Source: a virus (taxonomy: Duplodnaviria; Heunggongvirae; Uroviricota; Caudoviricetes). Taken from it: DNA of 64,000 bases. This document shows positions 7,494 to 23,554 of this stretch, one piece after another. Position 1 is the stretch's first letter. Each line of letters starts with the position of its first letter. The stretch lies in the IMG/VR virus record IMGVR_UViG_3300014963_000512; one strand, 5' to 3'. The notes beneath the pieces are model-generated. The model saw only the letters and a list, made by a program, of their open reading frames with translations, was not told the origin of the DNA and made no database searches. The position numbers and the translations under genes are program-made.

Positions 7494-7621
7494 CGGAGCC
7501 CTTCCAACAAACATGACTGGGGCAAGATTACAGGCTAACGGCTTTCCAATAGAGAGTACGCCTGTAATGACAAAATAGTTAGTCAGATGGTGGTTGGCTG
7601 ACCTTAAAGCCACTCTCATAT

Positions 7622-7705: not shown

Positions 7706-7845
7706 TTAGCTTTGCCACGGTGTTGTGTCCTTTCAGCAGCTCTCTCCTTTTCGTCCGTCGTTCATCGCCTTCCTTTCAAACGGCAAAGCTGCTGTGGAAT
7801 CCAAGCGTGTCCACCTTTCTGGGCGCCCCGTAACAGCCGGTTTAT

Positions 7846-7921
7846 GCTTCCGTAGCTCAGCTGGTAGAGCACCGCCCTTTTAAGGCGGGTGTCATGGGTT
7901 CGAGCCCCATCGGGGGCACCA
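7846..7921 (+). tRNA. tRNA-Lys(TTT)
   Basis: Acceptor GCTTCCG/CGGGGGC (two G-U pairs). Stem CCGCC/GGCGG. Loop CTTTTAA. T-loop TTCGAGC. CCA encoded. Confidence 0.85.
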
Positions 7922-7949
7922 ATTTTAACTCGCAAGGAGGTTATTTACC

Positions 7950-8615
7950 GTGGGGGTTCATATTTATGTAGCCGCAAATACAGCGTGGACTTTCTTCCAA
8001 AGTCATAAAGACCGTTTGTCAAAGGAAATGGTCGTCATCGCAGAGAACACAGACACACAGTATGCGGTTTATCTTACCGAGGATAATGCGCTTCCTTTGT
8101 TTTCTGTGTGCAAGGGTGATGCAAAGCCAGAGTACGAAGAGTGTGTTCTGACCGAAACAGGGTGTAGCGAAGCGGCAAAGCGCCTGTATGCACAATATCT
8201 TTTTCCTATTATGATTGTTGACGGGAAGAAGTGCCCGCCGGAACCGCCGGAAGAAGAGCCGGAGGATTTGACTCGGCAGGATATGGAGGATGCGCAGTAT
8301 GAGCGTGAGGACGAGCTTTCTCTTGCTTTGTGTGATTTCCTGTCCGTGGTCTTGCAGGAGTCAATAGATAACAGCCCTGAAATCATGGATACATATGGAG
8401 AAATGTTCGTAAACGAGGTATTAGACCACTTCTTGGAGTACCTCGCACAGGAGCAGTGCTTATCCATTTACCGCCCCATGATTATCACGGATGAAGAAAC
8501 TGGCTGCGAGGTCTATACGGAGTTCCCGTATGAGGATGATGCCGGTTATCCGGTGGACGATGACGAGTTTAGCGGTGGTTTTTGGAATGATATTAAGGGC
8601 GGCGGTCTGAAATGA
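7950..8615 (+). CDS. hypothetical acidic protein (221 aa)
   Basis: GTG start with aaggagg RBS. Pro/Glu-rich linker. Confidence 0.55.
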   Translation: MGVHIYVAANTAWTFFQSHKDRLSKEMVVIAENTDTQYAVYLTEDNALPLFSVCKGDAKPEYEECVLTETGCSEAAKRLYAQYLFPIMIVDGKKCPPEPPEEEPEDLTRQDMEDAQYEREDELSLALCDFLSVVLQESIDNSPEIMDTYGEMFVNEVLDHFLEYLAQEQCLSIYRPMIITDEETGCEVYTEFPYEDDAGYPVDDDEFSGGFWNDIKGGGLK

Positions 8616-8629
8616 CCCGCCCTTCTTTT
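8598..8629 (+). terminator. rho-independent terminator
   Basis: gggcgg...ccgccc stem followed by ttctttt. Confidence 0.7.
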
Positions 8630-8631
8630 AT

Positions 8632-8722
8632 GGGGAGTTGGCCGAGTGGCTTATGGCGGCGGTCTTGAAAACCGTTGACGGTGATGAGCCGTCCGTGGGT
8701 TCAAATCCTACACTCCCCGCCA
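8632..8722 (+). tRNA. tRNA-Ser(TGA)
   Basis: Acceptor GGGGAGT/ACTCCCC-G-CCA. Anticodon loop CTTGAAA. Long variable arm. Confidence 0.85.
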
Positions 8723-8746
8723 CATTTTTGATTGGAGGTCTGTGAG

Positions 8747-9406
8747 ATGCCAAACTGCTTGGATAATATGCCCTGGCGTTCTTTGAAAGGGCTTGGAAAA
8801 TATGCGGCTGATTTCTTGCAGCTCGGAGATTACCGCAATGTTGTGCTGAAGAACGGTGCGCAGGTTCAGTTTCGCATCATCGGCTTCAATCATGACAAAA
8901 CAAGCGACGGTTCTTTGGCTCCCATTTCGTGGGAGATGGTAGACTGTCTGCCTAACACTTACCCGTGGAATAGACGGGACACCAACGAGGGGTCGTGGGA
9001 GGCAACCCAAATTCGCCACCGACTCAACGATGCGGACGGCGACATCCATCGTCTGATTCCCGATGAGATTTTGGATGTTGTCACGCCAGTCATTAAGCAG
9101 ACAGCCGATGTGTACACAGGAGAAAATCGTATCATTGAGACACTGGATTCTTTCTGGATAAAGTCCGAGAAGGAATTGTATGGGCGCAATATCTACTCTG
9201 CGCCCGGCGAGGGACATTGGTACGAATGGTATCGTCAGGAGGATGTCGCATGGTTCAAGCTTCGCAACGGTAATCCCGAGTACACCATGTTGCGTTCTCC
9301 TGGTTCTGGCAACAGCGGTTGTTTCTGTTATGTCTACAGCGACGGCTGCGCCTACTATGGCTACGCCGGCTACAGTTCTGGCGTCGCTTTCGGCTTCTGC
9401 ACTTAA
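8747..9406 (+). CDS. hypothetical protein with Gly/Tyr/Cys-rich C-terminus (219 aa)
   Basis: ggagg RBS 7 nt before ATG. Confidence 0.55.
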   Translation: MPNCLDNMPWRSLKGLGKYAADFLQLGDYRNVVLKNGAQVQFRIIGFNHDKTSDGSLAPISWEMVDCLPNTYPWNRRDTNEGSWEATQIRHRLNDADGDIHRLIPDEILDVVTPVIKQTADVYTGENRIIETLDSFWIKSEKELYGRNIYSAPGEGHWYEWYRQEDVAWFKLRNGNPEYTMLRSPGSGNSGCFCYVYSDGCAYYGYAGYSSGVAFGFCT

Positions 9407-9469
9407 AGCTGCATGGCGCAGCCATCAGCTTTTGCCCGAACCTGTAAAATCAAATAGCTTTTTACAAGT

Positions 9470-9506
9470 GCCCGGCGCTCCGTGAAGGAGACCGGGCGCG
9501 TTTTAT
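9470..9506 (+). terminator. rho-independent terminator
   Basis: gcccggcgctcc...ggagaccgggc hairpin followed by gcgtttta. Confidence 0.65.
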
Positions 9507-9598
9507 ACCCACAACGGCTCCAACCTCCCCGTGGTGTGGGCGGATAACCGCAAGGTGAACCAATAGGAGTACATCAGTATTGAAGGAGTACATACATC

Positions 9599-9997
9599 AT
9601 GGCAAAAATCACTATCGCAGGCGACGCAGCTGTCGTAACTTCCGCAATGAAGCTGGAGGACATCAAGACCATTGAGAAGTACCGCCCCAAGGAGCTGGTT
9701 CTCAAGGGCGGCGAGGACGGTAAGGAGCCTATCTTCGCTGTGGGTACCACCAGTGGTGCCGGTAACATCAACGCTTTCGGCGCTTCTTTCGGCGCTGAGA
9801 CCCGCGATGATGAGAAGCTGGCGTGCATCACCCTGTTCCTTGACGGCGTGACCGGCGATGTCAAGGATTGGGTTGCCGACCGTCTGGGCGCCGCCATCAT
9901 CAACCTCAACAAGCTTGAGGAGAAGCTGCCCGCCGTTCTCGATGAGATTGCGGGTGAGAAGGCAACTGTGATGAGCAACATCACGGTCGCTCAGTAA
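9599..9997 (+). CDS. hypothetical protein (132 aa), terminator-flanked and probably highly expressed
   Basis: ggagtacatacatcATG start. Strong terminators on both sides. Confidence 0.6.
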   Translation: MAKITIAGDAAVVTSAMKLEDIKTIEKYRPKELVLKGGEDGKEPIFAVGTTSGAGNINAFGASFGAETRDDEKLACITLFLDGVTGDVKDWVADRLGAAIINLNKLEEKLPAVLDEIAGEKATVMSNITVAQ

Positions 9998-10010
9998 TCA
10001 CGGGTCGCAA

Positions 10011-10045
10011 AACGGGGCGGTTTACACCGCCCCGTTCCGTTTCAC
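10011..10045 (+). terminator. rho-independent terminator
   Basis: aacggggcgg-tttaca-ccgccccgtt followed by ccgtttc. Confidence 0.75.
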
Positions 10046-10079
10046 AACAAAACAAATTTTGAATTAAAGGAGAAACATT

Positions 10080-10307
10080 ATGATTAAGGTTACTGTTGGC
10101 AACAATGTCAAGCGCGAGTCCGTTATCATCGACGAGTCCACTACCCTGCGTGCCTGCCTGGAGGCAAACGGCGTTGACTACACCCGTGGCGTCATGCACC
10201 TCGACGGTTCCTCTTTGAACCCCGGCGACCTCGACAAGACCTTCGCTCAGTTCGGTATCACCGAGAAGTGCTTCCTGCTGAATGTGGTCAAGGCCGATAA
10301 CGCCTGA
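10080..10307 (+). CDS. small protein (75 aa) with a ubiquitin/ThiS-like beta-grasp secondary-structure pattern but no C-terminal Gly-Gly
   Basis: taaaggagaaacattATG start. Layout MIKVTV..ESVIID..TTLRACLEANGVD..VMHLDG..LLNVVKADNA resembles the Ub/ThiS beta-beta-alpha-beta-beta arrangement. Followed by a terminator. Confidence 0.5.
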   Translation: MIKVTVGNNVKRESVIIDESTTLRACLEANGVDYTRGVMHLDGSSLNPGDLDKTFAQFGITEKCFLLNVVKADNA

Positions 10308-10329
10308 TTCACAAGCAATTAAACCAGCC

Positions 10330-10357
10330 GAGCCGCCCGAATGGGCGGCTCTTTCTA
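10330..10357 (+). terminator. rho-independent terminator
   Basis: gagccgccc-gaat-gggcggctc followed by tttct. Confidence 0.75.
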
Positions 10358-10358
10358 T

Positions 10359-10443
10359 GGGGAATTGGCGGAACAGGCAGACGCTGCGGACTTAAAATCC
10401 GCTGGTGCATACCATATCGGTTCGACTCCGATATTCCCCACCA
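10359..10443 (+). tRNA. tRNA-Leu(TAA)
   Basis: Acceptor GGGGAAT/ATTCCCC-A-CCA. Stem GCGGA/TCCGC. Loop CTTAAAA. Long variable arm. Confidence 0.85.
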
Positions 10444-10470
10444 TATAACAAAATGAATAGAGGTGTTCCT

Positions 10471-11934
10471 ATGTTCAAAACAAGCATTTCGTCAACGCCG
10501 TTTACCACGGAAGCTGCCAATAGCTACTTCACCAACATTACCGGCGGTGCTTTCGGCAACGACTGCTCTTTCCTTGCGACGCTTCGTGCCTTAGTTGCAC
10601 CTCGAATCAAAGAGGGAGAGTCCGTCAATCTGGTGTTCGGCTCTTCCGATTATACGGCAGACACTATTCGGAGTGTTCCAGCGGACAGAGCCGTTTTGGC
10701 TGTCTGCAACAACTATGATATGAACGCGACGGGACAGGTTGTTGTTCATAGTTTGCGGGCAGATTCGGACAGCAATTTTGCCAACATGAAAATCATCGCT
10801 GACAAGTTTGCCTCTGTGTATGCGGGGTATCATCGCCTCGAAAAGTTCGCAGAGTTCTACCGCAAGTCTTTCGCCGTAGATTGCTATATCAATCCCGAAC
10901 TTAAAAGCGTTATTATCTTTGCGGACAGCCTCGACATCCGCAAAATGCACTACCTGCAGGTTTCTATCCTTGCATTCCTGCCGTGGTATCTGAACCAGCA
11001 GGAGGGCATCACTGAGGATGAACTTGCGTTGGTCAAGTCCCTTCGTGAGAAGAACTCAGAAGAGTATGAACGCTGTCTTGCCAAACTTGCAGAACGGTAT
11101 GATTTCCGAACCGCAAGAATCCGCCAGCTGTTGAAGGGGTTTGAAACCCGCTATGAGCAGATTGAGTGCGACCGGGTCAGGCAGATGATTCAGAACATTG
11201 ATAGAGAAATCACCCGCCTGAATGACAATATCGGTGAACAGTTCACGAAGCGTAATGAGCAGTGCATTCGTTTGCTGGGGCTTGAGCAGAAAGTTGCCGA
11301 TGGCGGTGAGGACTCCGAAATCATGGAGTACTTCCTGTGTAATACCAAGCTGGTTCTGGAGCGTGTGACCAACACCGATATGTATTTCACGGTCAAGGAC
11401 TGCCTGGAATATTTTGACCGGGATATGGCGGAGCGAATCATCAATCGTGCTACCAGCTTCGTTTATCGTCCTGATGGTGGTTCCGGCCATACAGGTGCAG
11501 CTGCTGAGAAGATGAAAAGGCTGATGACTGAAATCTTTGTCAGCGAAGAGCCACGTTTGAAAATTCGTGTCTGCGCATCGTATCGCTTTGATCTCAACGG
11601 CAGCGTTTCTCCGCAGGGGCATCGGAGCTTTGGCGCAGAGTACGCTGATTATCTTCCCAATCCCCACATCAACGACTACAACTGCATGGGCAACTATACC
11701 ACCACTATCAACAGGCTCCTCAAGAATCACGATTACATCGGTGCGTTGGAGCAGTGCATTGCTTCCTGCAAGAGTCTTAACTGGGGTGACTCTGCGGTTA
11801 TGACTTCGTTTATGCGGTCTATGTGGGGCAACGGCAGCAACAATCGCTGCATCGAACTGCCTGATGGTCGTGTTGTAAAGCCCAACGAAGCCATCACTTG
11901 GTTGGAGCAGCAAGAAGCACAGACAAATGAGTAA
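10471..11934 (+). CDS. hypothetical protein (about 488 aa), first gene of the tRNA-bounded island
   Basis: agagg RBS before ATG 10471. An alternative in-frame ATG lies at 10453. No recognisable catalytic motif. Confidence 0.55.
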   Translation: MFKTSISSTPFTTEAANSYFTNITGGAFGNDCSFLATLRALVAPRIKEGESVNLVFGSSDYTADTIRSVPADRAVLAVCNNYDMNATGQVVVHSLRADSDSNFANMKIIADKFASVYAGYHRLEKFAEFYRKSFAVDCYINPELKSVIIFADSLDIRKMHYLQVSILAFLPWYLNQQEGITEDELALVKSLREKNSEEYERCLAKLAERYDFRTARIRQLLKGFETRYEQIECDRVRQMIQNIDREITRLNDNIGEQFTKRNEQCIRLLGLEQKVADGGEDSEIMEYFLCNTKLVLERVTNTDMYFTVKDCLEYFDRDMAERIINRATSFVYRPDGGSGHTGAAAEKMKRLMTEIFVSEEPRLKIRVCASYRFDLNGSVSPQGHRSFGAEYADYLPNPHINDYNCMGNYTTTINRLLKNHDYIGALEQCIASCKSLNWGDSAVMTSFMRSMWGNGSNNRCIELPDGRVVKPNEAITWLEQQEAQTNE

Positions 11935-11950
11935 GCGGAGGAGGCGCAAA

Positions 11951-12913
11951 ATGAGTAAACCCATTAAGATGACCGAGCAGTACATGGCTGAGTGCCGTGC
12001 GGACTTTGAAAAGGCTCTGCAACTCACAAAGCTTGCAGATGGAAAACTGTCATTCACGAAGGTGTTCACCTGTGGTGACAGAAAAGCAACTGTCGTCTTT
12101 ACCGCTGGAGCATGGGCAAAGATGGCACTCCTTATCAAGGAGTTCGATAAAGAGGTCGCTTGGCATGGTGTTGCACATCGTGCAGCCGACGAAGCCGTAG
12201 ATGAGTACATCATCGAAGACATCGTGGTTTATCCGCAGGAGGTTTCTGGCACCACGGTTGAGATGGATACCGAGAAGTACGCTGAGTGGTTGATGCAGAA
12301 TGCAGACGATGAGCGTTTCAACAACATTCATATGCAGGGGCATTCCCATGTCAATATGCCGACCAGTCCTTCCTCTGTAGACCTCAATCATCAGGAGGAA
12401 ATCCTCAATATGCTGGGGGACGATGATTTCTACATCTTCATGATTTGGAACAAGTCGTTTGTCAGTACAAATAAAATCTATGACCTCAAGAAGAATGTCC
12501 TGTTTGAAGATAAGGACATCACCGTCAAGCTTGAGGGTGAGCATGAGGGGCTGGCCGAGTTCCTCAAGACCGCCAAGGATATGGTCAAGCAGAAAAGCTA
12601 TACCTATGGCAACTATGGCGGATATGGCGGCTACAGTGGCAATCGCCCGCCTTATTCCGGCGCCCCTTACAATCCTCTTCCGGGAAGCAAAAAGGATGAG
12701 AAAGAGGACAAGGGCGGTAAGAAGTCCGATAAGAAGTCTGACGATAAGAAATCGGACAAGAAGTCTGAAAAGTCCGGCGAGAAACCGCGCACAAGAATCG
12801 GTGCGGGTTGGCAAGGAAAGAACGCCAGTCAGCAGTCCATGTGGGACGAAGATGACGATGACTCTGTGTATCCCTATGGAGGCTACAGCGACCAGTATCT
12901 TGGAGGTGAGTAA
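11951..12913 (+). CDS. JAB/MPN(+) metalloprotease-domain protein with a long Gly/Tyr/Lys-rich disordered C-terminal tail
   Basis: ggaggagg RBS. JAMM motif E...HMQGHSHVNMPTSPSSVD (HxHx7Sx2D). Low-complexity tail GGYGGYSGNRPPYSGAPY...KKSDKKSDDKKSDKK. Protein ends ...YLGGE. Confidence 0.7.
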   Translation: MSKPIKMTEQYMAECRADFEKALQLTKLADGKLSFTKVFTCGDRKATVVFTAGAWAKMALLIKEFDKEVAWHGVAHRAADEAVDEYIIEDIVVYPQEVSGTTVEMDTEKYAEWLMQNADDERFNNIHMQGHSHVNMPTSPSSVDLNHQEEILNMLGDDDFYIFMIWNKSFVSTNKIYDLKKNVLFEDKDITVKLEGEHEGLAEFLKTAKDMVKQKSYTYGNYGGYGGYSGNRPPYSGAPYNPLPGSKKDEKEDKGGKKSDKKSDDKKSDKKSEKSGEKPRTRIGAGWQGKNASQQSMWDEDDDDSVYPYGGYSDQYLGGE

Positions 12914-12915
12914 TA

Positions 12916-13593
12916 ATGGCGATGGATTTGTCTAAAAGCTACGAGTATTTTCAGCCTGAAAAGATTGAGGCTCGCATTAACATTGTTGGATGTGGTTCTG
13001 TCGGCGCAACACTGGCAGAGAACCTCGTCCGTCTTGGCATCACCAATCTCGCCCTGTGGGATATGGATGTCGTGAATCCGCACAATCTGGCAAACCAGAT
13101 TTTCCGCCAGCAGGATATCGGTCGCCCCAAAGTGGAGGCTCTGGCAGATATTCTGTTTGAAATCAATCCCGAAATCAAAGATGACCTCAAGCTTTACGGC
13201 AAGGGGTGGAGTGGTCAGCAGCTTTCCGGCTATGTCTTCCTCTGCGTGGACAATATCGAACTGCGCCGCCAGATTGTTGAAAAGCATTTTGACAATCCTT
13301 ATGTCAAAGCGATGCTGGATTTCCGAACTCTGCTGGAATCCGCACAGCATTATGCTGCTGACTGGTCTGACTACAAGATGAAGAAAGACCTGTTGAACTC
13401 CATGAATTTCAGTCATGAAGAAGCGGCTGAGGAAACGCCTGTCTCCGCCTGCGGCATTACGCTGGGTGTTGCACCGACTGTCAGAGCTATCTGCGCACTT
13501 GGCGTTGCCAACTTTGTCAACTTCATTCGTGGCAAGGGGTTGAAAAAGCTTATCATCTTGGATGCGTTCAACTTTATGTTGGACGCTTTTTAA
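12916..13593 (+). CDS. ThiF/MoeB/E1-like adenylyltransferase (ubiquitin-activating-enzyme family, minimal 225 aa form)
   Basis: Rossmann IVGCGSVGATLAENLVRLGI, DMDVVNPHNLANQ and VFLCVDN motifs. Start overlaps the JAB stop (TAATAATG). Confidence 0.8.
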   Translation: MAMDLSKSYEYFQPEKIEARINIVGCGSVGATLAENLVRLGITNLALWDMDVVNPHNLANQIFRQQDIGRPKVEALADILFEINPEIKDDLKLYGKGWSGQQLSGYVFLCVDNIELRRQIVEKHFDNPYVKAMLDFRTLLESAQHYAADWSDYKMKKDLLNSMNFSHEEAAEETPVSACGITLGVAPTVRAICALGVANFVNFIRGKGLKKLIILDAFNFMLDAF

Positions 13594-13627
13594 TCAGCAA
13601 TGAGAAACGAAAGGAGGGCGGTGCATT

Positions 13628-14437
13628 ATGGATACTACCGTTGAACGCCTTAAGGTCGGCACACCGGTCATCATTGGCTCTTACGGTGTCAACAATGATG
13701 AGCCGCACCCTGTTGTTTGGCTGAAAGGCAGTCCAAACTGCGATTTTATCACTGAATGTGCTGTGGATTATCTTTGCTTTGATGCACCAGAAAGAACTGG
13801 AGACGGCAGGCGCAATCTTGGTAATCCCGACTACCGGCTTTCCAATATCCATACATTCCTGAACAGTGACAGAGACGATTGGTTTTGCAAGACACACGAA
13901 GCGGATGCTCCTCCCAATAATGTCTTTTCCAATCGGGCTCAAAGCTATCGTAACCACTACGGGTTTCTGTACTTCTTCGAGGATTACGAGCTTGATAGCT
14001 TGCAGATGCAGCAGTATGTGGTTGACGGTGAGACGATTAGTTCCCTCATTCGGCTTCCTACCATCACCGATATCCTTGATGACCAGTTGAAGCTAAAGCT
14101 GTTTCACAAGAAGGGTATCCGTCCTAAAGCAACGCAAGACTGTGCCGATAAGAAAGGCCGGTTTGGCAATTTCGGCTGGGAGTCTTACATGAACTTCTGG
14201 TTAGCGGGTAAACAGGATGGATTCAGAGATTATGCTTTGACTCTTGGTCGGGCAGGGTATTATGAGAGGAAGTACCCCCGTGACTGCGCAGGGCTTAGAC
14301 CGATGTGCCGGTTGAAACCGGAAACGGCAGTAGTGGTTGATGAAAACGGCGTAGTCCACATCAAACCTTATGCGTTGAAAAACGAAACCTGCACAGATGC
14401 AGAACTGTTCGAGCTTTTAGGTGTGGCGCAGCCTTAA
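13628..14437 (+). CDS. hypothetical protein (269 aa) immediately upstream of the retron-like ncRNA
   Basis: aaggagggcggtgcattATG. Confidence 0.55.
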   Translation: MDTTVERLKVGTPVIIGSYGVNNDEPHPVVWLKGSPNCDFITECAVDYLCFDAPERTGDGRRNLGNPDYRLSNIHTFLNSDRDDWFCKTHEADAPPNNVFSNRAQSYRNHYGFLYFFEDYELDSLQMQQYVVDGETISSLIRLPTITDILDDQLKLKLFHKKGIRPKATQDCADKKGRFGNFGWESYMNFWLAGKQDGFRDYALTLGRAGYYERKYPRDCAGLRPMCRLKPETAVVVDENGVVHIKPYALKNETCTDAELFELLGVAQP

Positions 14438-14449
14438 AATGCGCTATTG

Positions 14450-14771
14450 AACTGTAACGAATTACCCTTTTCGGGGGCTTCACGCCAAAGGCTGAAGTAA
14501 CAAATTGTCGGGGTGGAAAACACCGCCTGCCCAGAGAGGTGACCAGAGACTCCTCCGGAGTCAGCAGGTCACGGACATCCGCCAGGAACTCGAAGGCAGG
14601 GATAACATAACAATCCTGACTTGTCAAGTAATATTCCCCACAAAAACCCACCCAATTACGACAATTACCCTAACTCTCACCAGAAAAGTGCTCCCCAAGG
14701 CAGCTCACTCAGCTCGCTGCAGATGAGCTTCTTTTGATTCAAACGCAGCAGTACTCATGTAGGTTACAGTT
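14450..14771 (+). ncRNA. retron msr/msd-like structured RNA, unit A (upstream of the RT)
   Basis: Flanked by 9-bp inverted repeats a1 aactgtaac (14450-58) and a2 gttacagtt (14763-71). Conserved 5' module CGCCAAAGGCtgAAGTAACAA at 14483. Conserved 3' module catgtaggtt precedes a2. RT start codon lies 28 nt after a2, as in canonical retrons. Confidence 0.6.
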
Positions 14772-14798
14772 ACGACTATAAAAAGGAGGCATAGGGCT

Positions 14799-15935
14799 AT
14801 GGTATATATCACGGTCATGCAATCCCCGATTTATCACCAAATGACGCTGGAAGAGTTCCTCTTTCAAAACTTCCAAGCGCCAACCATATTAAACACAAAT
14901 GTTTCCAACACACGAACCTATGCATATGAAACGGTAAGTGAGCATTTCACAAGCCGCATTGATACGGATGCTCTTATCCGTAAACTGGTGCGCTTTAATG
15001 AGCAAACGGAGGCGCTTCGCACGCAGGAGCGCAGTACTTTGTATGAAACATTCCACATCCCCAAAAAGTCTGGTGGTTTGCGTCGTATTGATGCCCCTAA
15101 GCCGGAGCTGATGAACGCATTGCGGAATCTCAAGACTATTTTTGAGGAGGATTTCCATGCGCTGTATCATACTTCTGCATTCGCCTATGTAAAAAACAGA
15201 TGCACGGTTGATGCGGTCAAGCGTCATCAGAAAAACAACAGCAAATGGTTCGGCAAGTTGGATTTGCACGATTTCTTTGGAAGCACTACGCTGGATTATG
15301 TTATCAAAATGTTTTCTATGGTGTTTCCCTTCAGCGAAATCGTAAAAACTCCCAACGGCGAGGCAGAGTTGAGAAAGGCTTTGGACTTGGCTTTCCTAAA
15401 TGGCGGCCTTCCGCAGGGAACTCCGCTTTCCCCGCTGATTACCAATGTGATGATGATTCCCGTTGACCATAAGCTTGCCAATGCATTCCGGGATTTTGAT
15501 AAACAGCGGTTTATTTATACCAGATATGCGGATGACTTCATTATTTCATCTAAGGTCGATTTCGATGTGCATCGTGTAGAAAAACTTGTGGTGGATACGC
15601 TGCATGAATTTGGAGCGCCATTTACCATCAACGAAAGCAAGACGAGGTATGGTTCTTCCGCAGGCCGGAACTGGAATCTCGGCGTCATGCTCAATAAGGA
15701 CAACGAAATTACCGTCGGCCATAAGAAGAAGCGTCAGTTCCAGTCTATGCTTTACAACTATATTACCGATAAACGCAAGGGTATCTCGTGGCCGAGAGAG
15801 GATATTCAAACTATGCAGGGCTTACATAGCTACTATCGCATGGTAGAGCCGGAGACTATCGATGCCATCGTGAAGCATACCAACGAAAAAATGGAGACAG
15901 ATGTCCTGCGGCTTATCAAAGACGATTTAAGATAA
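14799..15935 (+). CDS. retron-family reverse transcriptase
   Basis: RT motifs FHIPKKSGGLRRI, VDAVKRH (NAxxH-like), KLDLHDFFGS, GLPQGTPLSPLITN, YTRYADDFIIS, ESKTRYG and an NLGVML (VTG-like) region. Collinear with the Ec86 retron RT motifs. aaaaaggaggcatagggctATG start. Confidence 0.85.
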   Translation: MVYITVMQSPIYHQMTLEEFLFQNFQAPTILNTNVSNTRTYAYETVSEHFTSRIDTDALIRKLVRFNEQTEALRTQERSTLYETFHIPKKSGGLRRIDAPKPELMNALRNLKTIFEEDFHALYHTSAFAYVKNRCTVDAVKRHQKNNSKWFGKLDLHDFFGSTTLDYVIKMFSMVFPFSEIVKTPNGEAELRKALDLAFLNGGLPQGTPLSPLITNVMMIPVDHKLANAFRDFDKQRFIYTRYADDFIISSKVDFDVHRVEKLVVDTLHEFGAPFTINESKTRYGSSAGRNWNLGVMLNKDNEITVGHKKKRQFQSMLYNYITDKRKGISWPREDIQTMQGLHSYYRMVEPETIDAIVKHTNEKMETDVLRLIKDDLR

Positions 15936-15942
15936 TCCCTTT

Positions 15943-15970
15943 GGCGGTTTGAGGTTAAACCGCCCTTTCC
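15943..15970 (+). terminator. hairpin after the RT stop (ggcggttt-gaggtt-aaaccgcc) with a weak U-tract. Terminator or RNA structural element.
   Basis: 8-bp perfect stem followed by ctttcc. Confidence 0.4.
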
Positions 15971-16241
15971 TGTAATGGATAATTGCGAAAGCAATGCTTA
16001 TCGCCAAAGGCATAAGTAACAACTTGCTGGGGAGGAACACCCCGCCTCTTCCTGAAGACCGGCTGACGACGCGGCTGCGACCCAGTCGGGCTCGTCATCA
16101 AGCACGAGAAATATAGTCAGTGGTCATTGCGGCACAATGGATTCCACACCAGCAGAGAATTAAAAATAGGAACTAACCGCACCTGCGAGGTGCTCCAGGC
16201 GCCTCGCATCCGGCACGCTTATCCTATGTAGATTACAGGAA
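15967..16241 (+). ncRNA. retron msr/msd-like structured RNA, unit B (downstream of the RT)
   Basis: a1 ttcctgtaat (15967-76) pairs with a2 attacaggaa (16232-41), 10 bp. GNRA hairpin attgc-gaaa-gcaat at 15982-95. 5' module CGCCAAAGGCatAAGTAACAA at 16002. 3' module ctatgtagatt. Confidence 0.55.
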
Positions 16242-16250
16242 CACCAAAAT

Positions 16251-16555
16251 CATTTGCAATGAATAACATCCCGAAAGGAATGTGCTTTGCGCCAAAGGCC
16301 AAAGTAACAATTTGCTGGGAAACGAAGGCCGCCTGCCACCGAAGGCAAACGCGGGTCTTGAGATGCGCATCCGGAAGCACGCACCTCCATCGCCGAATGA
16401 AAACAAGAAGATAAGCAGGCAACGGGACAAGACGCACTGCGGCACAATAGCTTCCCACCAAAAAAAAACCAAATCACGGAACATCGTCGAGCGAATCGCA
16501 GGGCCCTTGGACGGTACCCTGGATACAGGGCTATGCTCCATGTAGATTGCAAGTG
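16251..16555 (+). ncRNA. retron msr/msd-like structured RNA, unit C
   Basis: a1 catttgcaat (16251-60) pairs with a2 attgcaagtg (16546-55), 10 bp including one G-U. Hairpin cc-gaaa-gg. 5' module CGCCAAAGGCcaAAGTAACAA at 16290. Internal block tgcggcacaat shared with unit B. 3' module ccatgtagatt. Confidence 0.55.
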
Positions 16556-16574
16556 AAGAAAGGAATTAGATTCC

Positions 16575-17264
16575 ATGATATATGTGACAGGCGATACTCA
16601 CGCCAATATTGATATTGAAAAGCTTAACACGACAAAATTCCCGCAGCAGAAAAATCTGACAAAGGATGATTACCTGATAATATGTGGCGATTTTGGTTTG
16701 TGCTGGGATGGCTCACGCAGGGAGATGTGGTGGCAAGACTGGCTCACAGCCAAAAATTTCACCACGCTCTGGATTGACGGAAACCACGAAAACTTTGATA
16801 TGCTGTACCAGTTCCCGTTAGAGGATAAGTTCGGCGGCAAAGTAAGACAAATTGCACCGGACATTTATCATCTGGACAGAGGCCAGGTTCTTACCATTGA
16901 TGGCAGGAAAATCTTTTGTATGGGTGGCGCCCGTTCAGTGGACAAGGCGTATCGCACGGAGCATATTTCATGGTGGCAGCAGGAGATGCCGTCAAACGAG
17001 GAGATGGAGCGTGCAGTTTGTGCTCTGGAGCAGAACAACTGGACAGTTGATTATGTTGTGACACACTGTGCTCCCCGCAGTATCCAGACACTGCTGGCAA
17101 GTTGGTACGAAAACGACCCGATGGTCAGTTTTCTGGAGCGTATTCGTCAAGACCTTTGTTTTAAGCGGTGGTACTTCGGTCACTACCATGTAGACAAACA
17201 ACTTAATGACCAGTTTGTCGCCTTGTATAATCGGGTAATCCCAATTTCAGATATGCAGATGTAG
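16575..17264 (+). CDS. calcineurin-like metallophosphoesterase (lambda-PPase/Pnkp-phosphatase-like)
   Basis: Motifs VTGDTHAN, ICGDFG, GNHEN, GHYH. aaggaattagattccATG start. Follows unit C directly. Confidence 0.8.
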   Translation: MIYVTGDTHANIDIEKLNTTKFPQQKNLTKDDYLIICGDFGLCWDGSRREMWWQDWLTAKNFTTLWIDGNHENFDMLYQFPLEDKFGGKVRQIAPDIYHLDRGQVLTIDGRKIFCMGGARSVDKAYRTEHISWWQQEMPSNEEMERAVCALEQNNWTVDYVVTHCAPRSIQTLLASWYENDPMVSFLERIRQDLCFKRWYFGHYHVDKQLNDQFVALYNRVIPISDMQM

Positions 17265-17431
17265 CGGAATAGGTAGACGCCGCAGGGGTCATGCGGTTCG
17301 GCAAAGACACAGCATCATTCAAACCTATTGGGGTTTAAGAAGCTACCTCGGACGGGAACAAAGCCGGTTGTGGACAAGTCGAACAATGCGGGGTGCGAAT
17401 CCCCACCATCTGCACCATCGGCATGGCATTG
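17255..17431 (+). tRNA. tRNA-like element: Leu-type acceptor plus D-arm at the 5' end and T-arm plus acceptor plus CCA at the 3' end, separated by about 100 nt. Probable pseudo-tRNA or disrupted tRNA.
   Basis: GCAGATG-TA-GCGGAATAGGTAGACGC ... GGGGTGCGAATCCCC-AC-CATCTGC-A-CCA. The 5' end overlaps the phosphoesterase stop codon. T-loop reads TGCGAAT instead of TTCGAAT. Confidence 0.3.
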
Positions 17432-17602
17432 CCGTGGAAAGGACTAATGTTTCTCCAGAATTATGCCGGTGTGCCGACACATAGAAAGCGGCTGGGCTGT
17501 GCGGAGCCTGTAGAGACGGAATCCGCAACGCAGATACAGACCTGCGTTACCAAAGGTGCCGCGCTGGCAGGCCGCAAGTTCGCAATAGTCTGCCATCTAT
17601 AT

Positions 17603-17680
17603 ACGGGCGAATGTTCCAAGGCTGGCGAGGCGGTCTCCAAAACCGCTTGTGGTGGGTTCGATTCCCAACCGTCCGTGCCA
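17603..17680 (+). tRNA. tRNA-Trp(CCA)-like gene with a weak D-stem and one extra nucleotide at the T-arm/acceptor junction
   Basis: Acceptor ACGGGCG/CGTCCGT-G-CCA. Perfect anticodon stem GCGGT/ACCGC with loop CTCCAAA. T-loop TTCGATT. Same architecture as bacterial tRNA-Trp including the G discriminator. Confidence 0.45.
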
Positions 17681-17867
17681 GAGGCTGGGTAGCGCCCAGA
17701 TGATGTGAGAGATTATCGGCTTACCTCACAGAGAATGACAATGCCTGCTGAAAACTGCGCTTTTTCTGATGCGTCGGAACCAGTGTGACCGGGTGAATCG
17801 GGGCTATGCGTTTGCGGATGTGTAGTTGCTGGTAGCGTGTGACAATCTAAGCGGGAAGCCGACCAAT

Positions 17868-17943
17868 GCTGGAATAGCTCAACTGGTAGAGCAACGCTCT
17901 CGTACAGCGTAGGTTCTCGGTTCGACTCCGAGTTCCAGCTCCA
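17868..17943 (+). tRNA. tRNA-Thr(CGT)
   Basis: Acceptor GCTGGAA/TTCCAGC-T-CCA. D-arm GCTC/GAGC. Loop CTCGTAC. T-loop TTCGACT. Confidence 0.85.
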
Positions 17944-18106
17944 GTTTCCAAAGCTGACAGCGTACAGGGGTGATGAGCGGATATGCCATCCCGTCAGCAG
18001 GACGCATACCGGGTGCGTGAAAACCGGAGGGGTTAGCTTCGACCCGTCAAGGAAATGGCTTCAAACAAACCCAATGTCCACATTGGGGTGCCAGTGAGCA
18101 CTCTTT

Positions 18107-18182
18107 GCTGGTGTAGCTCAGTTGGTAGAGCATCGGTTTTGTACTCCGAGGGTCGCGGGTTCGAGCCCTGTCACCAGCTCCA
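18107..18182 (+). tRNA. tRNA-Thr(TGT)
   Basis: Acceptor GCTGGTG/CACCAGC-T-CCA. Loop TTTGTAC. T-loop TTCGAGC. Confidence 0.85.
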
Positions 18183-19233: not shown

Positions 19234-19508
19234 CTTTGTTCTTAAGTGAAAGATTCTTTCGCTTTTGATATGACCGCTTTGTAGATTTTCCGCACATACA
19301 TACCCCCTTCTCTGTGCGGTATCTTCTCGCTTAGAGCAGAAGAGACACTTTGCGTTCTTCATTTTTAACTTCGGATTTAGTCAGTATTAAAAAGATTATC
19401 CGGCGGATAATCATTTTAATCCAGTCTAAATCTCTCGTTAAAAATGTCACTTTATGCACAGGGTCGCGCCACAGTAAAACGCGCTCCCCTGCGGAAAGCG
19501 GTCGGGTA

Positions 19509-19539
19509 CAGATAAAGAGGCGCAAGCCTCTTTTATCTG
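19509..19539 (+). terminator. 13-bp perfect hairpin (cagataaagaggc-gcaa-gcctcttttatctg). Terminator or attenuator just upstream of the rtcB promoter.
   Basis: Read directly from the sequence. The U-tract lies inside the 3' stem arm. Confidence 0.5.
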
Positions 19540-19548
19540 TGCTATAAT
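19540..19548 (+). promoter_or_regulatory. extended -10 promoter element TGcTATAAT upstream of rtcB
   Basis: TGn plus TATAAT consensus 35 nt upstream of the RBS ccaaaggaggg. Confidence 0.5.
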
Positions 19549-19582: not shown

Positions 19583-20788
19583 ATGCTTGAGCTTCAAGGG
19601 AAATACGCTTCGGCAAAAGTATTTACCGATGTGGTCGATAGCGAATCCATTTCTCAGGTCATCAATCTCTTGAACCAGCCCTATGTCGAGGGCAGCAAGG
19701 TTCGTATGATGCCAGACATTCATGCCGGTGCGGGTTGCACGATTGGCACTACCATGACTATCAAGGATAAAATTTGCCCCAACCTTGTTGGCGTTGATAT
19801 TGGATGCGGTATGGAAACCATCCGCCTGAAAGAGACCCACATCGAACCGCAGAAGCTGGATAAGGTTATCCGCGAGGGTATCCCGTCCGGCTTTGCAATC
19901 CGTTCCGTCCCGCATCGTTACGCAAAAGAAATCGATTTGTCGCAGTTGTGCTGCGCAAAGAAGGTCAATACTGACCGTGCCTATCATAGTATTGGTACTT
20001 TGGGCGGAGGCAATCATTTTATTGAGGCGAACAAGGACGATGATGGGAACATCTATATCGTTGTCCACTCCGGCAGCCGCCATCTGGGTCTGGAAATCGC
20101 CAACTTCTATCAGGAAGCTGCTTTCAAGGCACTGACCTCTTATAGCCATGAAGAGATTGAGGCGGCTATTGAACAGCTGAAAGCGGATGGCCGTCAAAAA
20201 GAAATTCAGGCAGTACTGAAGTCCATGAAGTCCAAACATTCACCCGTCCCCAAACCGCTTGCTTATGTGGAGGGTGAGCTCTTTGAGCAGTATCTTCATG
20301 ACATGAAAATTGCCCAGCGTTTTGCTGAGCTGAACCGGCAGACAATGATGGATACCATCGTCAAAGGAATGGAATTCCATGTAACTGAACAGTTTACAAC
20401 GATTCACAACTATATCGATGTGGAGAACATGATTTTGCGTAAGGGTTCTGTGTCTGCACAGGCCGGTGAACGCTTGTTGATTCCCATCAATATGCGTGAC
20501 GGCAGCTTACTTTGCACCGGCAAGGGCAATCCGGATTGGAACTTTTCCGCTCCGCATGGTGCCGGTCGGCTGATGAGCCGCAGCGCAGCAAAAGAGGCAT
20601 TTACTGTGTCTGAGTTCAAAAAGCAGATGGTAGGCATCTACACGACTTCCGTCGGACGCAGCACGCTGGATGAATGCCCGATGGCCTATAAGGGTATGGA
20701 CGATATTGTTGGCAATATCGAGCCGACCGTAACCATTGATGCCGTTATCAAGCCTATTTATAACTTCAAGGCGGGTGATGAAGATTGA
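19583..20788 (+). CDS. rtcB: RtcB-family RNA 3'-phosphate/2',3'-cyclic-phosphate ligase
   Basis: Motifs MPDIHAGAGC, GGGNHFIE, HSGSRHLG. 401 aa. Confidence 0.85.
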   Translation: MLELQGKYASAKVFTDVVDSESISQVINLLNQPYVEGSKVRMMPDIHAGAGCTIGTTMTIKDKICPNLVGVDIGCGMETIRLKETHIEPQKLDKVIREGIPSGFAIRSVPHRYAKEIDLSQLCCAKKVNTDRAYHSIGTLGGGNHFIEANKDDDGNIYIVVHSGSRHLGLEIANFYQEAAFKALTSYSHEEIEAAIEQLKADGRQKEIQAVLKSMKSKHSPVPKPLAYVEGELFEQYLHDMKIAQRFAELNRQTMMDTIVKGMEFHVTEQFTTIHNYIDVENMILRKGSVSAQAGERLLIPINMRDGSLLCTGKGNPDWNFSAPHGAGRLMSRSAAKEAFTVSEFKKQMVGIYTTSVGRSTLDECPMAYKGMDDIVGNIEPTVTIDAVIKPIYNFKAGDED

Positions 20789-22077
20789 TTGCCACGACGC
20801 CACTGTCAGATTCTATCACAAAATTACGCCGTTTGCAGGAAGCAAACGGCTCCATAAGAAAGACCCAGCTGTTACGGGAGTTCAAAGACGATGCGAACTT
20901 CCGTAATTTTTTATATTACGCGCTCAACCCGATGCTCACCTATAAAATTTCGGAACAGACGCTTCGCTCCCCTGTCCGGTATGACTCAGCCATCACACTG
21001 ACAATGACAGACATCTTTTCTGTCTGTGAGCTGCTGTCTAAGAGAAAGGCGTTGGACGCCGGTACGGTGTATCAGGTCTGCGCGTTCGTTCAGAGCGCCC
21101 CGCCGGATGAAGCTGGTGTTTATATCAAGCTTCTTTCCAAGACGCTCCGGCTGGGTGTCACGGCAAAGACCGTGAACAAGGTTATCCCCAACCTGATTCC
21201 GGAGTGGGAGGTTCAGCAGGCGTATCCCATTGACAAGTATCCGCTGAAAGAGAACACAGAGTTTTGGCTGACGCAAAAGCTAAACGGTGTCCGAGCGACT
21301 TATTACAAAGGCAAACTGTACGCAAGAAGCGGCGTTCCCTACGAAGGGCTTGACCACATTCTGGACGCTCTCTGCTTCGATGAAGAGGATAGCTATGTGT
21401 TCGATGGTGAGCTGACGCTTCGTGAGAAGGGTAGCCTCTCAGATAATGAGGCGTTCCGAAAAGCGACCGGTATTATCAACTCAGACGATGGTGATAAAAC
21501 GGTGATTTGTTACACGATTTTTGATGTCCTGACGGTCGAAGAGTTCCACCGTGGGCAGAGCGACGGCAGTTATGGCTACCGCCGTGCTTTCTTAGACCAG
21601 CTTCACCGCTTCATTCCGCAGGATGGCCGGGTCAGTATTCTGCCGGTTCTGTATCATGGAAAAGACCGGAGCAAAATCAGCGAACTGCTGGAGCAGATGG
21701 TTCGTGAGGACAAAGAAGGGTTGATGGTCAACCTTGATGTTCCCTACCAGTGCAAACGGCACAACGGAATCCTGAAAGTCAAACGCTTTTACACGATGGA
21801 CTTGTGTATCCTCCGCTGTGAAGAAGGTAGCGGAAGATTGGCAGGGACTTTGGGTGCGCTTGTGCTCGACTATAAGGGGAATGAAGTCAAGGTCGGCTCC
21901 GGGTTTACCGACGAGCAGCGAGCAACATTCTGGCAAGGGAAAAATGACCTACCGGGTTTGCTTTGCGAAGTAAAGTACAAAGAAATATCCAGTGATAAAA
22001 ACACCGGTGCTGAGAGCCTTCAGTTCCCGGTGTTTATTTCTATCCGAACCGATAAAACCGAAGTCAGCTTCGGATAA
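20785..22077 (+). CDS. ATP-dependent polynucleotide ligase (DNA-ligase-like nucleotidyltransferase, KxNGxR motif I)
   Basis: Motif I KLNGVR, motif III FDGEL, motif IV EGLMVN, motif V LKVK, and an OB-fold region. The TTG start overlapping the rtcB stop is uncertain. Confidence 0.65.
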   Translation: MIATTPLSDSITKLRRLQEANGSIRKTQLLREFKDDANFRNFLYYALNPMLTYKISEQTLRSPVRYDSAITLTMTDIFSVCELLSKRKALDAGTVYQVCAFVQSAPPDEAGVYIKLLSKTLRLGVTAKTVNKVIPNLIPEWEVQQAYPIDKYPLKENTEFWLTQKLNGVRATYYKGKLYARSGVPYEGLDHILDALCFDEEDSYVFDGELTLREKGSLSDNEAFRKATGIINSDDGDKTVICYTIFDVLTVEEFHRGQSDGSYGYRRAFLDQLHRFIPQDGRVSILPVLYHGKDRSKISELLEQMVREDKEGLMVNLDVPYQCKRHNGILKVKRFYTMDLCILRCEEGSGRLAGTLGALVLDYKGNEVKVGSGFTDEQRATFWQGKNDLPGLLCEVKYKEISSDKNTGAESLQFPVFISIRTDKTEVSFG

Positions 22078-22096
22078 ATCAGAGAGGAGGTCTTGC

Positions 22097-22495
22097 ATGA
22101 AAAAACAATCAAAGCCACCGCAGTTCTCCGAATCCATCGGGGCGTTCTGCCGGATGATGGAGGATGCGCAGAAAGATTATGCGTGGAATTATAGCGAGGT
22201 CAACCGCATGGACAGGCTTACGCAGGACTACCTCCACAAACTGGAGCTTGACGGCCTCGACTATAAGGAACGGGCAAAGGTCGCCACAAGTCTTGCTAAG
22301 TGCAGACAGGCACGCCGTGAATATAAGGACACGGTAGAAATCCTTGAACCGCTCGTTCAATTTTTGGAAAGCGACAAAGGCAAAAACCTTTTGAACTTGA
22401 TGCGCGAGGCACTGGGTAAGACCAGAAAGGTCGAGAAGTGCATGGAAACCCGCACATACATACCACGAGTTTTAGAACAGGAGGTAAGCAAGTGA
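22097..22495 (+). CDS. hypothetical protein (132 aa)
   Basis: agaggaggtcttgcATG. Confidence 0.5.
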   Translation: MKKQSKPPQFSESIGAFCRMMEDAQKDYAWNYSEVNRMDRLTQDYLHKLELDGLDYKERAKVATSLAKCRQARREYKDTVEILEPLVQFLESDKGKNLLNLMREALGKTRKVEKCMETRTYIPRVLEQEVSK

Positions 22496-22677
22496 ACATC
22501 GTGTTCTGGCTCATCGTCATCGTTGCACTTGTGCTGTTATGGTTCTGTCTGAGCTTTGCCTTTAAGGGCATTGGCGCATTCGGCCTGCGAATTTACAACG
22601 ATGCGAAAAAGGAAATCTCCGAGGAATCGGAGGAGAAATCTGAAAAAACAACAGAGGAGTTAAAGGATGAAGGGTAA
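22492..22677 (+). CDS. small membrane protein (61 aa)
   Basis: GTG with ggagg RBS. Single TM (IVFWLIVIVALVLLWF) and an acidic tail. Confidence 0.4.
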   Translation: MNIVFWLIVIVALVLLWFCLSFAFKGIGAFGLRIYNDAKKEISEESEEKSEKTTEELKDEG

Positions 22678-23554
22678 AATCGGCGCAATTATTTTGGGTA
22701 TCGTGATGGTCTTCTGCCTGATTGCCTGCATTGTGTGTCTTGAGAAAATTCCCGCCGGTTATGTCGGCGTCGTGTACAACATGAACGGCGGCGTTGATGG
22801 TGAGGTTCTGACACAGGGCTGGCATCTGGTTGCCCCAACCAAGAAGGTGACCCAGTATTCTATCGGTATTGAGCAGTCTTATTTGACAGCTGAGGATAAG
22901 GGTGATTCGCCCAAGGATGAGAGTTTTAACATTCCTACCTCCGATGGTAAGACAGTCCGTGTGAATATTGAGTTCTCATATCGTTTTGATGAGGCGCGAG
23001 TCTCCGAAACCTTTGCTATGTTCAAAGGAAAGTCAGGCGAGGCAATCAAGGATTCGTTCATCAAGCCCAAGGTTATTGCATGGACACAGGAGGTGTCTGC
23101 CAACTATCCCGTCACTGACATCTTCGGCGACAAGCGCACCGAAATCAATGCCGAGTTGGATACCTATCTGCGTGAGAAGTTCAACCAGTACGGCATTATC
23201 ATCGACACGGTGAACTTTACCGACATTTCCGTTGATGAGGAGACCGCCGCCGCCATCCAAAAGAAGGTCACCGCCCAGCAGGAGCTGGAGCTGGCGAATA
23301 TTGAGAAGCAGACCGCAAAGATTCAGGCAGAAAAGGACAGAGAGGTTGCCCAGATTAACGCAGAAAAAGCGGTTATCGAAGCGGAAGCAAAGGCAGAAGC
23401 TCTGCGTATTGCAGCCGAAGCCGAGGCTGAGGCAAACCGTATGATTGCCGGTTCTCTGACCGGTGAGTTGATTGAGAAAATCAAGTATGAGCAATGGAAC
23501 GGCGAACTGCCTACTGTAACCGGTTCCAGTTCCATTATCAGCATCGACCCCTAA
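22667..23554 (+). CDS. SPFH/band-7 (prohibitin/HflKC-like) membrane protein
   Basis: N-terminal TM, PHB domain and a C-terminal Ala/Glu-rich coiled coil (AEAEAKAEALRIAAEAEAEA). Confidence 0.8.
   Translation: MKGKIGAIILGIVMVFCLIACIVCLEKIPAGYVGVVYNMNGGVDGEVLTQGWHLVAPTKKVTQYSIGIEQSYLTAEDKGDSPKDESFNIPTSDGKTVRVNIEFSYRFDEARVSETFAMFKGKSGEAIKDSFIKPKVIAWTQEVSANYPVTDIFGDKRTEINAELDTYLREKFNQYGIIIDTVNFTDISVDEETAAAIQKKVTAQQELELANIEKQTAKIQAEKDREVAQINAEKAVIEAEAKAEALRIAAEAEAEANRMIAGSLTGELIEKIKYEQWNGELPTVTGSSSIISIDP

Follow-up and report, generated by a model that had tools for sequence, protein, structure and literature searches.

A retron-type reverse transcriptase with several structured RNAs sharing a handle in a large tailed phage: a probable multi-template retron

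Retrons are understood as bacterial anti-phage systems composed of one reverse transcriptase (RT), one non-coding RNA (ncRNA) together with an effector. Here we describe an element in a 64,000-nucleotide stretch of DNA from a tailed phage (Caudoviricetes; IMG/VR virus record IMGVR_UViG_3300014963_000512), called the window below, in which one retron-type RT gene is accompanied by five structured RNA units, A to E. The best explanation, which we regard as probable, is a phage-encoded, effector-less, multi-template retron making several reverse-transcribed DNAs (RT-DNAs). We have little doubt that the RT and the ncRNAs are a real, selected module, and by analogy with retrons it appears moderately probable that cDNA is synthesised on the units in the retron manner. 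The units belong to two classes: D and E (class II) are conserved and have msd-like hairpins, and A to C (class I) have a putative template of about 200 nt that is poor in U, weakly structured and rapidly changing. The features at the RT locus are as follows.

14450-14771, plus strand: unit A, class I ncRNA (sequence, fold, covariance model 66.9 bits, a1/a2 search); a1 14450-14458, candidate branch G 14459, P2 14465-14476, P3 14477-14498, payload about 14520-14750, AUGUAG 14757-14762, a2 14763-14771
About 14784-14790, plus strand: ribosome-binding site AAGGAGG of the RT gene
14799-15935, plus strand: retron-type RT, 378 aa, YADD intact (Pfam, PADLOC, NCBIfam and PDB matches)
15943-15964, plus strand: small hairpin GGCGGUUU-GAGG-UUAAACCGCC between the RT stop codon and unit B (terminator-like scan)
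15967-16241, plus strand: unit B, class I (sequence, fold, a1/a2 search, covariance model 73.3 bits); a1 15967-15976, G 15977, P2 15982-15995, P3 15996-16017, AUGUAG 16226-16231, a2 16232-16241
16250-16556, plus strand: unit C, class I, with the most hypervariable payload (sequence, fold, covariance model 77.8 bits, strain comparison); a1 16250-16260, G 16261, P2 16266-16283, P3 16284-16305, payload about 16335-16530, AUGUAG 16540-16545, a2 16546-16556, a1/a2 with one G-U pair

The order of parts is the same in units A to C: the terminal repeat a1, an unpaired G, a short variable hairpin (P2), a second hairpin (P3), the sequence AACAAnUUG, a centre of about 200 nt (the payload), AUGUAG and the terminal repeat a2. 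P2 and P3 are referred to as the handle. The geometry of P3 is fixed in the three units, with a stem of 6 bp that is followed, after a bulged C, by one of 3 bp and a loop of 3 nt (GCUUnnCGCCAAAGGCnnAAGU), and the 5' motif CGCCAAAGGCNNAAGTAACAA has three exact matches and one with two mismatches in the window, as against 0.02 expected. Retron ncRNAs are characterised by terminal repeats, by an unpaired G that follows a1, by short hairpins in the msr and by a long stem in the msd (PMC7736814). The arrangement found here, a1-G-hairpins-template-G-a2 followed by the RT start codon 27 nt after the end of the unit A a2, is the a1-msr-msd-a2-RT layout of that paper, in agreement with a sequence-only reading that had been made of this DNA before any database search. 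The boundaries given there for A to C are correct within 1 nt, and its 3' module has been revised to AUGUAG followed by a2, the "ATT" included in it being the start of a2. Its description of the units as msr/msd-like cassettes holds for the a1-G-hairpins-G-a2 layout but not for the central regions of A to C, which are without a long msd-type hairpin. No Rfam family was found over any unit, either in the window at gathering thresholds or in 14300-16700 at E values up to 10.

Two smaller elements accompany these units. An internal box, AUUGNGNCACAA, is present in B (16128-16146) and C (16434-16452) and, in loci with RT identity of at least 66%, is conserved in B- and C-type units at a distance of 105-125 nt from their 3' end; it could mark the end of the template. 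A long-range pairing, "P4", between the conserved UUGnUGGG and the segment after this box could be drawn in a few units but was rejected, being no better than in shuffles across the whole set (12.95 vs 11.88, 74 units). The hairpin at 15943-15964, which may be a processing site or a weak terminator, keeps its loop GAGGUUAA with a different yet paired stem in the related loci L019 (about 4150-4175) and L022 (about 4148-4172).

Homologous loci were collected by scanning IMG/VR with the RT, which gave 71 loci with 41-99% amino-acid identity. In 46 loci, an nhmmer profile of the 5' module detected a unit upstream of the RT and one or two more downstream of it. A covariance-model search of related phage genomes, proposed in the sequence-only reading as a check, was carried out with a handle model (R1) of 70 positions and 15 pairs and gave 94 matches from 43 sources. 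Every match is on the strand of the RT, the lowest RT identity among them is 45%, and they are placed one upstream and one to three downstream of the RT. Among 80 distinct homologous units, 94% of the P2/P3 cells form standard pairs and changes on both sides are seen in 13 of the 15 pairs. The covariation score is 0.752, compared with 0.254 for shuffled alignments (none of 500 reaches 0.752) and at most 0.13 with the partner slid, where the R1 alignment is biased toward its own structure and the slid-partner control uses the same alignment. The handle model gives no score at the most distant locus, L075 (40% RT identity), where both intergenic gaps contain, by eye, a1|G ... UAG|a2, P2 and a P3-like hairpin, UUGGUGUUACCAA. 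Thus, throughout the loci of 40-99% RT identity, one unit always lies directly before the RT, and the presence of more than one unit near the RT (two or three within 3 kb) is the usual state in this RT family.

The terminal stem was searched separately by anchoring a1 at the invariant G and scanning 150-520 nt downstream. The a1/a2 helix has a median of 10 bp and reaches at least 9 bp in 65 of 87 units, as against 4.8% of shuffled a1 sequences; the pairing recurs in homologous phages that keep the RT. The length of a1 is 7-18 bp, the G after a1 is present in 74 and the AG before a2 in 64 of 76 distinct units, and the chosen a2 sits at the end of the intergenic gap. The pairs nearest the junction vary in Watson-Crick type (for example pair 1 U-A/C-G, pair 4 U-A/C-G, pair 5 G-C/A-U). 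When whole units were globally aligned and folded with RNAalifold, only the handle and the terminal stem were recovered, the centre being too divergent. Relative to third codon positions in four flanking genes, the rate of divergence of the handles is 0.11. The covariation that had been deduced from three paralogs is therefore confirmed on a much larger set, in P2/P3 as well as in the a1/a2 junction pairs, and the slow divergence of handles with covarying stems bears out the earlier view that these are maintained RNAs and not decayed duplicates.

The open reading frame (ORF) at 14799-15935 appears from its sequence to be a retron-type RT, as had been proposed, and it is the sole RT found when a second one was searched for in the window. 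It is a single-domain protein (Pfam RVT_1 at 7.4e-20, with no further Pfam domain). With PADLOC, the best 25 of 77 matches are all retron RT models, headed by RT_II-A at 5.6e-48 and followed by I-A, XIII and III-A. With NCBIfam, retron_St85_RT scores 178 bits and the TIR-retron and Ec67 profiles 100 bits each, compared with 81 bits for group_II_RT_mat, 41 for Drt2 and 29 for Drt3a. The closest solved structures are the RTs of retron Ec83, a chain deposited as "Retron", Ec78, Ec67 and Kva2; group II and Ec86 RTs rank lower. The N-terminus is longer by about 60 residues than in the retron RTs of 310-320 aa in PDB. An exhaustive HMMER search placed the protein in a family of 448 clusters (50% identity) at E < 1e-30, whose members are mostly 375-400 aa long. 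Because nucleotide identity among close strains is 96% overall and 90% at third codon positions, the RT is judged to be under purifying selection. Some relatives are about 450-480 aa long or match in two stretches, with about 230 nt inserted near residue 90 (L050 3001-4365 and L070 3001-4365; proteins P0122, P0124, P0129 and others); the insertion could be an intein, an intron or an extra domain. Retron-type RTs with 24-29% identity are also present in the Staphylococcus jumbo phages PALS_2, S6 and Madawaska and in some Klebsiella and Pseudomonas phages (GenBank MN091626.1, LC680885.1, MW349129.1 and others).

The sequence-only reading had counted three units. All three are real, but the window contains five; D and E, which lie farther downstream, had been overlooked.

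19272-19503, plus strand: unit E, class II, canonical retron-like (covariance model 17 bits with filters off, fold z = -8.8, P3 geometry scan); a1 19272-19280, G 19281, P2 about 19290-19318, P3 19322-19343, msd-like hairpin about 19360-19448, a2 19495-19503
19505-19545, plus strand: strong 17-bp hairpin directly after unit E and before RtcB, which could be a terminator or a processing signal
32386-32610, plus strand: unit D, class II (motif search, covariance model 27 bits, fold z = -3.45); a1 32386-32393, G 32394, P2 about 32400-32426, P3 32427-32448, long hairpin about 32465-32555, a2 32603-32610

Both are in intergenic gaps, to which the R1 model pointed at 32399-32465 and 19301-19352, and an exact scan of the window for the P3 geometry gave seven plus-strand matches, five of which are A, B, C, E and D. 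The 5' end of D and E consists of a1 ACCGCUUU, the G, UAGAUUU, P2 and a P3 with the geometry of A to C; the 3' part consists of a long near-perfect hairpin, CGG and a2 AAAGCGGU. With terminal repeats, a candidate branch G, short msr hairpins and a long msd stem, these two units fit the classical description of a retron ncRNA. Unit D was found in both the 99% and the 79% RT-identity phage groups, and substitutions on both arms of its long hairpin preserve pairing; unit E is kept among close strains. A search for further class II units in other phages with GTAGATTT-N(15-45)-CGCCAAAGGC gave the known D units and chance matches only. As a separate observation, the heptamer GUAGAUU changes sides of the terminal stem between the classes: it spans the payload/a2 junction in class I (14757-14765, as GUAGGUU in unit A; 16226-16234; 16540-16548) and directly follows a1 in class II (19281-19288, 32394-32401).

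A link between the RT and the units is provided by the P3 apex. Units of one genome have a mean apex identity of 0.82, compared with 0.43 for units of different genomes, and the apex changes with the RT clade: CGCCAAAGGC at RT identities of at least 74%, YRCUGUYAGY at about 62%, UAUUGUAAAU at about 55% and GGUAUUACC at about 46%. In the window, the apex of unit D is CGCCAAAGGC, identical to that of A to C. Since the positions of A, B and C are conserved across clades, co-evolution with a protein partner common to the units appears to account for the shared apex better than recent duplication does; gene conversion may be another source. An apex that is uniform within a genome and switches with the RT clade fits one RT serving all units.

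In contrast to the handles, the payloads of A to C change rapidly, even between strains, a variability that the sequence-only reading had missed. They contain 18.5% U and 28% C, compared with 24.8% and 21% in the whole loci, and cannot be aligned between phages with 70-80% identical RTs. In 12 genomes with 93-100% identical RT genes, per-site diversity is 0-0.02 in handles and 0.02-0.10 in flanking genes and highest in payloads (up to 0.43 in unit C); mean pairwise identity is 0.61 for payload C, 0.79 for A and 0.90 for B, as against 0.96 for the RT and 0.97-0.99 for handles. As a set, payloads diverge at 1.6 times the third-codon rate of the four flanking genes, and the unit C payload is about threefold over that rate. 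A comparison of the window with locus L074 is instructive: the RT genes are identical and the A and B payloads are 99% and 98% identical, but the C payloads are only 57% identical, and L074 shares its C payload, at 98% identity, with L052, though the RT of L052 differs by 5%. Payload alleles are thus discrete and are exchanged whole between lineages. Indels between alleles are 1, 2, 4, 5 and 12 nt long, and the payload is therefore not coding. Within allele groups, transitions predominate among the recent substitutions, A, C, G and T take part in equal measure (128, 129, 125 and 132), and variable payload sites have no adenine bias. Exact 23-25-mers of the A and C payloads of the window had no match in IMG/VR, though RT relatives of 98-99% identity are there. 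When targets were sought by BLAST in 1.5 Mb of fetched phage DNA, the 76 payloads used as queries matched only the units themselves, and BLAST of A to C against the rest of the window gave nothing besides the P3 hairpin of D. The threefold excess in unit C and the replacement of whole alleles favour, but do not prove, diversifying selection on the payload over a lack of constraint.

From these data and the analogy with retrons, we infer the following course of cDNA synthesis. The one RT (14799-15935) would recognise the shared P2/P3 handle beside the a1/a2 stem on at least five ncRNAs, and the stem would hold the conserved G beside the template's 3' end. The 2'-OH of the unpaired G after a1 would then prime the cDNA through a 2'-5' linkage, and the cDNA would begin just upstream of the G preceding a2 and read back through the payload. 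The predicted product is one branched RNA-DNA species per unit.

Several points weigh against a multi-template retron. Pfam and PADLOC scans found no known retron effector at the RT locus, leaving the tripartite logic of retrons incomplete. The RT is below every curated NCBIfam retron cut-off, the highest score being the 178 bits of retron_St85_RT against 235. Of the retron motif set that had been ascribed to it, KLDLHDFF, LPQGTPLSP and YTRYADD are all found, but in the alignment with Ec83 the NAxxH of region X (NAKIH in Ec83) is AVKRH, with only the H kept, and the VTG of region Y is NLG, with only the G kept; according to Mestre et al. (2020, PMC7736814), no residues of the two motifs are better conserved than this H and this G. 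The payloads of A to C have no long msd stem and fold about as well as mononucleotide shuffles (mean z -0.44 and -0.32), and, with their near-neutral divergence, could be unconstrained save in length and composition and not necessarily a specificity determinant. Units E and D are 3.3 and 16.5 kb from the RT, and the use of E by this RT is less certain because its P3 apex, GCUUAGAGC, differs.

The distance of D and E, together with the weak structure of the payloads, would also suit a different explanation, that the units are structured leaders or small RNAs independent of the RT, whose hairpin is bound by another phage or host protein and regulates the following gene, the proximity of the RT being synteny. 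Units do end 19-80 nt before start codons (A before the RT, C before a phosphoesterase gene, E before RtcB and D before the ORF at 32633), and as the relatives are all from a single phage lineage, synteny by itself says little for a functional link. A leader position, however, is equally normal for retron ncRNAs, and a P3 apex that tracks the RT clade and is uniform within a genome, the retron priming geometry a1|G ... G|a2 and the constant presence of a unit directly before the RT over 40-99% RT identity speak against independence from the RT, so that we consider this explanation unlikely. Much less probable still is the idea that duplication of a non-autonomous mobile element produced the units, or that they are copies in decay that no longer have a function. 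It would account for several paralogous copies with terminal inverted repeats, some of them dispersed (D and E), but the handles evolve at the low rate given above with covarying stems, the copies are positional orthologues across 40-99% RT identity and all on one strand, and the 12 close genomes showed no polymorphic unit insertions with target-site duplications.

Other explanations concern the product of the RT. An RT adjoining hypervariable sequence flanked by invariant sequence, in a genome that also encodes an ERF-family single-strand annealing protein, recalls a diversity-generating retroelement (DGR), and payload hypervariability might come from DGR-like or self-directed mutagenic retrohoming, with error-prone cDNA copied back into the units or a target gene. 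We rate this as very unlikely: the RT fits retron models, and the NCBIfam matches include no DGR RT family (DGR RT structures not directly compared); no pair of template and variable repeats, adenine positions ignored, was found in the 64-kb window of a genome of about 118 kb; all four bases are equally substituted, mostly by transitions, without adenine bias; and discrete alleles shared between lineages indicate recombination. The U-poor payloads leave long stop-free frames on both strands (for example 108 aa at 16250-16576 on the minus strand), which, with an ncRNA upstream of the RT, could be taken to mean that the RT makes concatemeric coding cDNA by rolling-circle copying in the style of DRT2, or that the units encode small proteins. 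This is hardly credible in view of a Drt2 score far under the cut-off of 390 bits, payload indels of 1, 2, 4, 5 and 12 nt with no protein-level conservation, and a terminal a1/a2 stem with a branch G, which is not DRT2 architecture. A group II intron was also considered and rejected, with no Rfam match in the RT region (14300-16700) up to E 10 and a group_II_RT_mat score well short of the cut-off of 300.

The window reads as part of a large tailed-phage genome and nearly all of its long ORFs are on the plus strand. The exact RT protein is indexed in 210 blocks of a public assembly collection. Of the contigs fetched, the longest measure 118-120 kb and are from metagenomes of human stool, and the phage carrying this locus is abundant and widespread in the human gut. 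No cultured phage is related at the DNA level, and the best protein match to the RT in GenBank phage records is 41% identical. Among genomes of 185,579 species, the handle pattern was present in only four contigs of metagenome-assembled genomes, with inconsistent taxonomy, and no isolate prophage was found. Among the products of the window are DnaB helicase, DnaG primase, the alpha subunit of Pol III, the ERF recombinase, NrdD and a glucosaminidase-domain protein, and the window contains the following further features.

164-235, 412-548 and 2333-2461, plus strand: RAGATH-16, RAGATH-4 and RAGATH-36 RNAs, above Rfam gathering thresholds
5155-18179, plus strand: eight tRNA genes, three of them 81-88 nt long
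17868-17940 and 18107-18179, plus strand: two tRNA genes between the phosphoesterase gene and unit E
19583-25466 and 33884-39689, plus strand: a dense and unusually complete set of tRNA/RNA-repair genes
45754-46455, plus strand: ERF-family single-strand annealing protein

The repair set comprises RtcB, an ATP-dependent DNA ligase, an Rnl-type RNA ligase (PHA02142 OB domain), a Thg1-like 3'-5' polymerase, RlaP, a CCA-adding enzyme and a class V aminotransferase (cysteine desulfurase-like). With the three RAGATH RNAs, this phage lineage has several orphan structured RNAs besides the units. The annealing protein is co-encoded with an RT that may make single-stranded DNA (ssDNA), and in engineered retron recombineering RT-DNA is combined with such a protein.

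Any specific biological role is proposed here with low confidence. If the element is a multi-template retron, a role in phage-host or phage-phage conflict, for example with RT-DNA as a decoy or antitoxin mimic against host defences, is possible, though doubtful. It is brought to mind by the position of the units amid tRNA genes and tRNA-repair enzymes, with unit E directly preceding RtcB, which suggests a conflict with host defences attacking tRNA. Both tRNA-cleaving retron systems and the means by which phages counter them, among them phage tRNAs and an anti-retron protein, have been reported; it is therefore plausible that a phage RT-DNA would mimic or soak up a host component. As a more tentative proposal, a programmable retron-type RT might make several ssDNAs in which the swapped payloads of A to C are specificity determinants against host defences or rival mobile elements, acting as decoys, antitoxin mimics or antisense/guide DNAs. 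Alternatively, cDNA synthesis on a leader might regulate the downstream gene; in type VI retrons, RT-DNA is reported to control translation (10.1101/2025.10.22.683967).

The neighbours of the RT are a ThiF-like E1, an Ig-like/Hoc-like protein and a metallophosphoesterase, none of which is a known retron effector. Two of them are located as follows.

12916-13593, plus strand: ThiF-family E1-like adenylyltransferase (Pfam ThiF), upstream of unit A and the RT
16575-17264, plus strand: metallophosphoesterase (Pfam), starting 19 nt after unit C

The metallophosphoesterase is downstream in most relatives with RT identity of at least 67% and missing in many others. ThiF is upstream of unit A wherever an RT locus has sufficient flank and also in the 40% relative (L075). 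Conversely, of the 47 ThiF-seeded loci that extend far enough downstream, all have an RT 0.3-2 kb downstream (loci used for co-occurrence: L001-L071, L075 and L187-L234), while the genes between the two come and go. Because all these phages are related, the co-occurrence may be inherited synteny, and ThiF may be a partner of the RT/unit system or only syntenic. It could equally work with the phage cysteine desulfurase in tRNA thiolation, for which TtuC/MoeB-type systems are the basis.

If the units are reverse transcribed, each phage would have several distinct RT-DNAs, some made from templates that are replaced wholesale between strains, and the question of viral uses of multicopy single-stranded DNA would be opened. 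The element would then also supply natural cases in which a single retron RT takes many templates, long and unrelated, that follow one compact conserved handle, a property wanted for retron-based DNA production and genome editing. Were the payloads indeed used in conflict, the element would amount to an offensive use of retron immunity's principle by a virus, in which an arms race drives the swapping of cassettes.

Comparison with known systems places this element nearest to bacterial retrons, for which types I-XIII, consisting of an msr-msd ncRNA and an RT, have been described (Mestre et al., 2020, PMC7736814); the nearest profiles are type II-A/St85-like and type I-A (Ec83, Ec78) RTs. An RT of the retron clade by profiles and structures, a1/a2 repeats, a G after a1 (a branch G at the sequence level), one to three 5' msr hairpins and an RT starting just after a2 are shared, and the long msd-type stem of canonical retrons is present only in D and E. 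Instead of the msd hairpin, A to C have a hypervariable, weakly structured template of about 200 nt. Other differences from retrons are that at least five ncRNAs of two classes accompany one RT, that no effector gene is recognised, that the RT is about 60 aa longer N-terminally with degenerate NAxxH and VTG, and that the element is carried by a large phage absent from isolate genomes. RT clades 2 and 11 include stand-alone (msr-msd)-RT cassettes without an effector gene (Mestre et al., 2020, PMC7736814), which are similar in this respect but are bacterial and have a single ncRNA, whereas the present system is phage-borne and has several. DRT2 and other ncRNA-templated defence RTs (UG/Abi class 2) likewise combine an RT with an adjacent structured ncRNA whose internal segment is the template (here predicted), but DRT2 is a bacterial defence system of another RT clade, from which the present RT was separated by its Drt2 score (41 vs 390 bits) and the non-triplet payload indels. 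Phage DGRs also have an RT beside sequence that varies sharply between close strains; they differ from this element, which has no template/variable repeat pair in the window, no adenine-specific changes and no DGR-type RT among its profile matches. In full-text literature searches, with subscription journals outside their reach, no phage-encoded multi-ncRNA retron was found described, in line with the earlier remark that several RNAs per RT are unusual for retrons. Judged by RT sequence and ncRNA geometry, the system would work like a retron, and what sets it apart from described retrons is that it is phage-borne, with several ncRNAs per RT, two ncRNA classes and long exchangeable templates.

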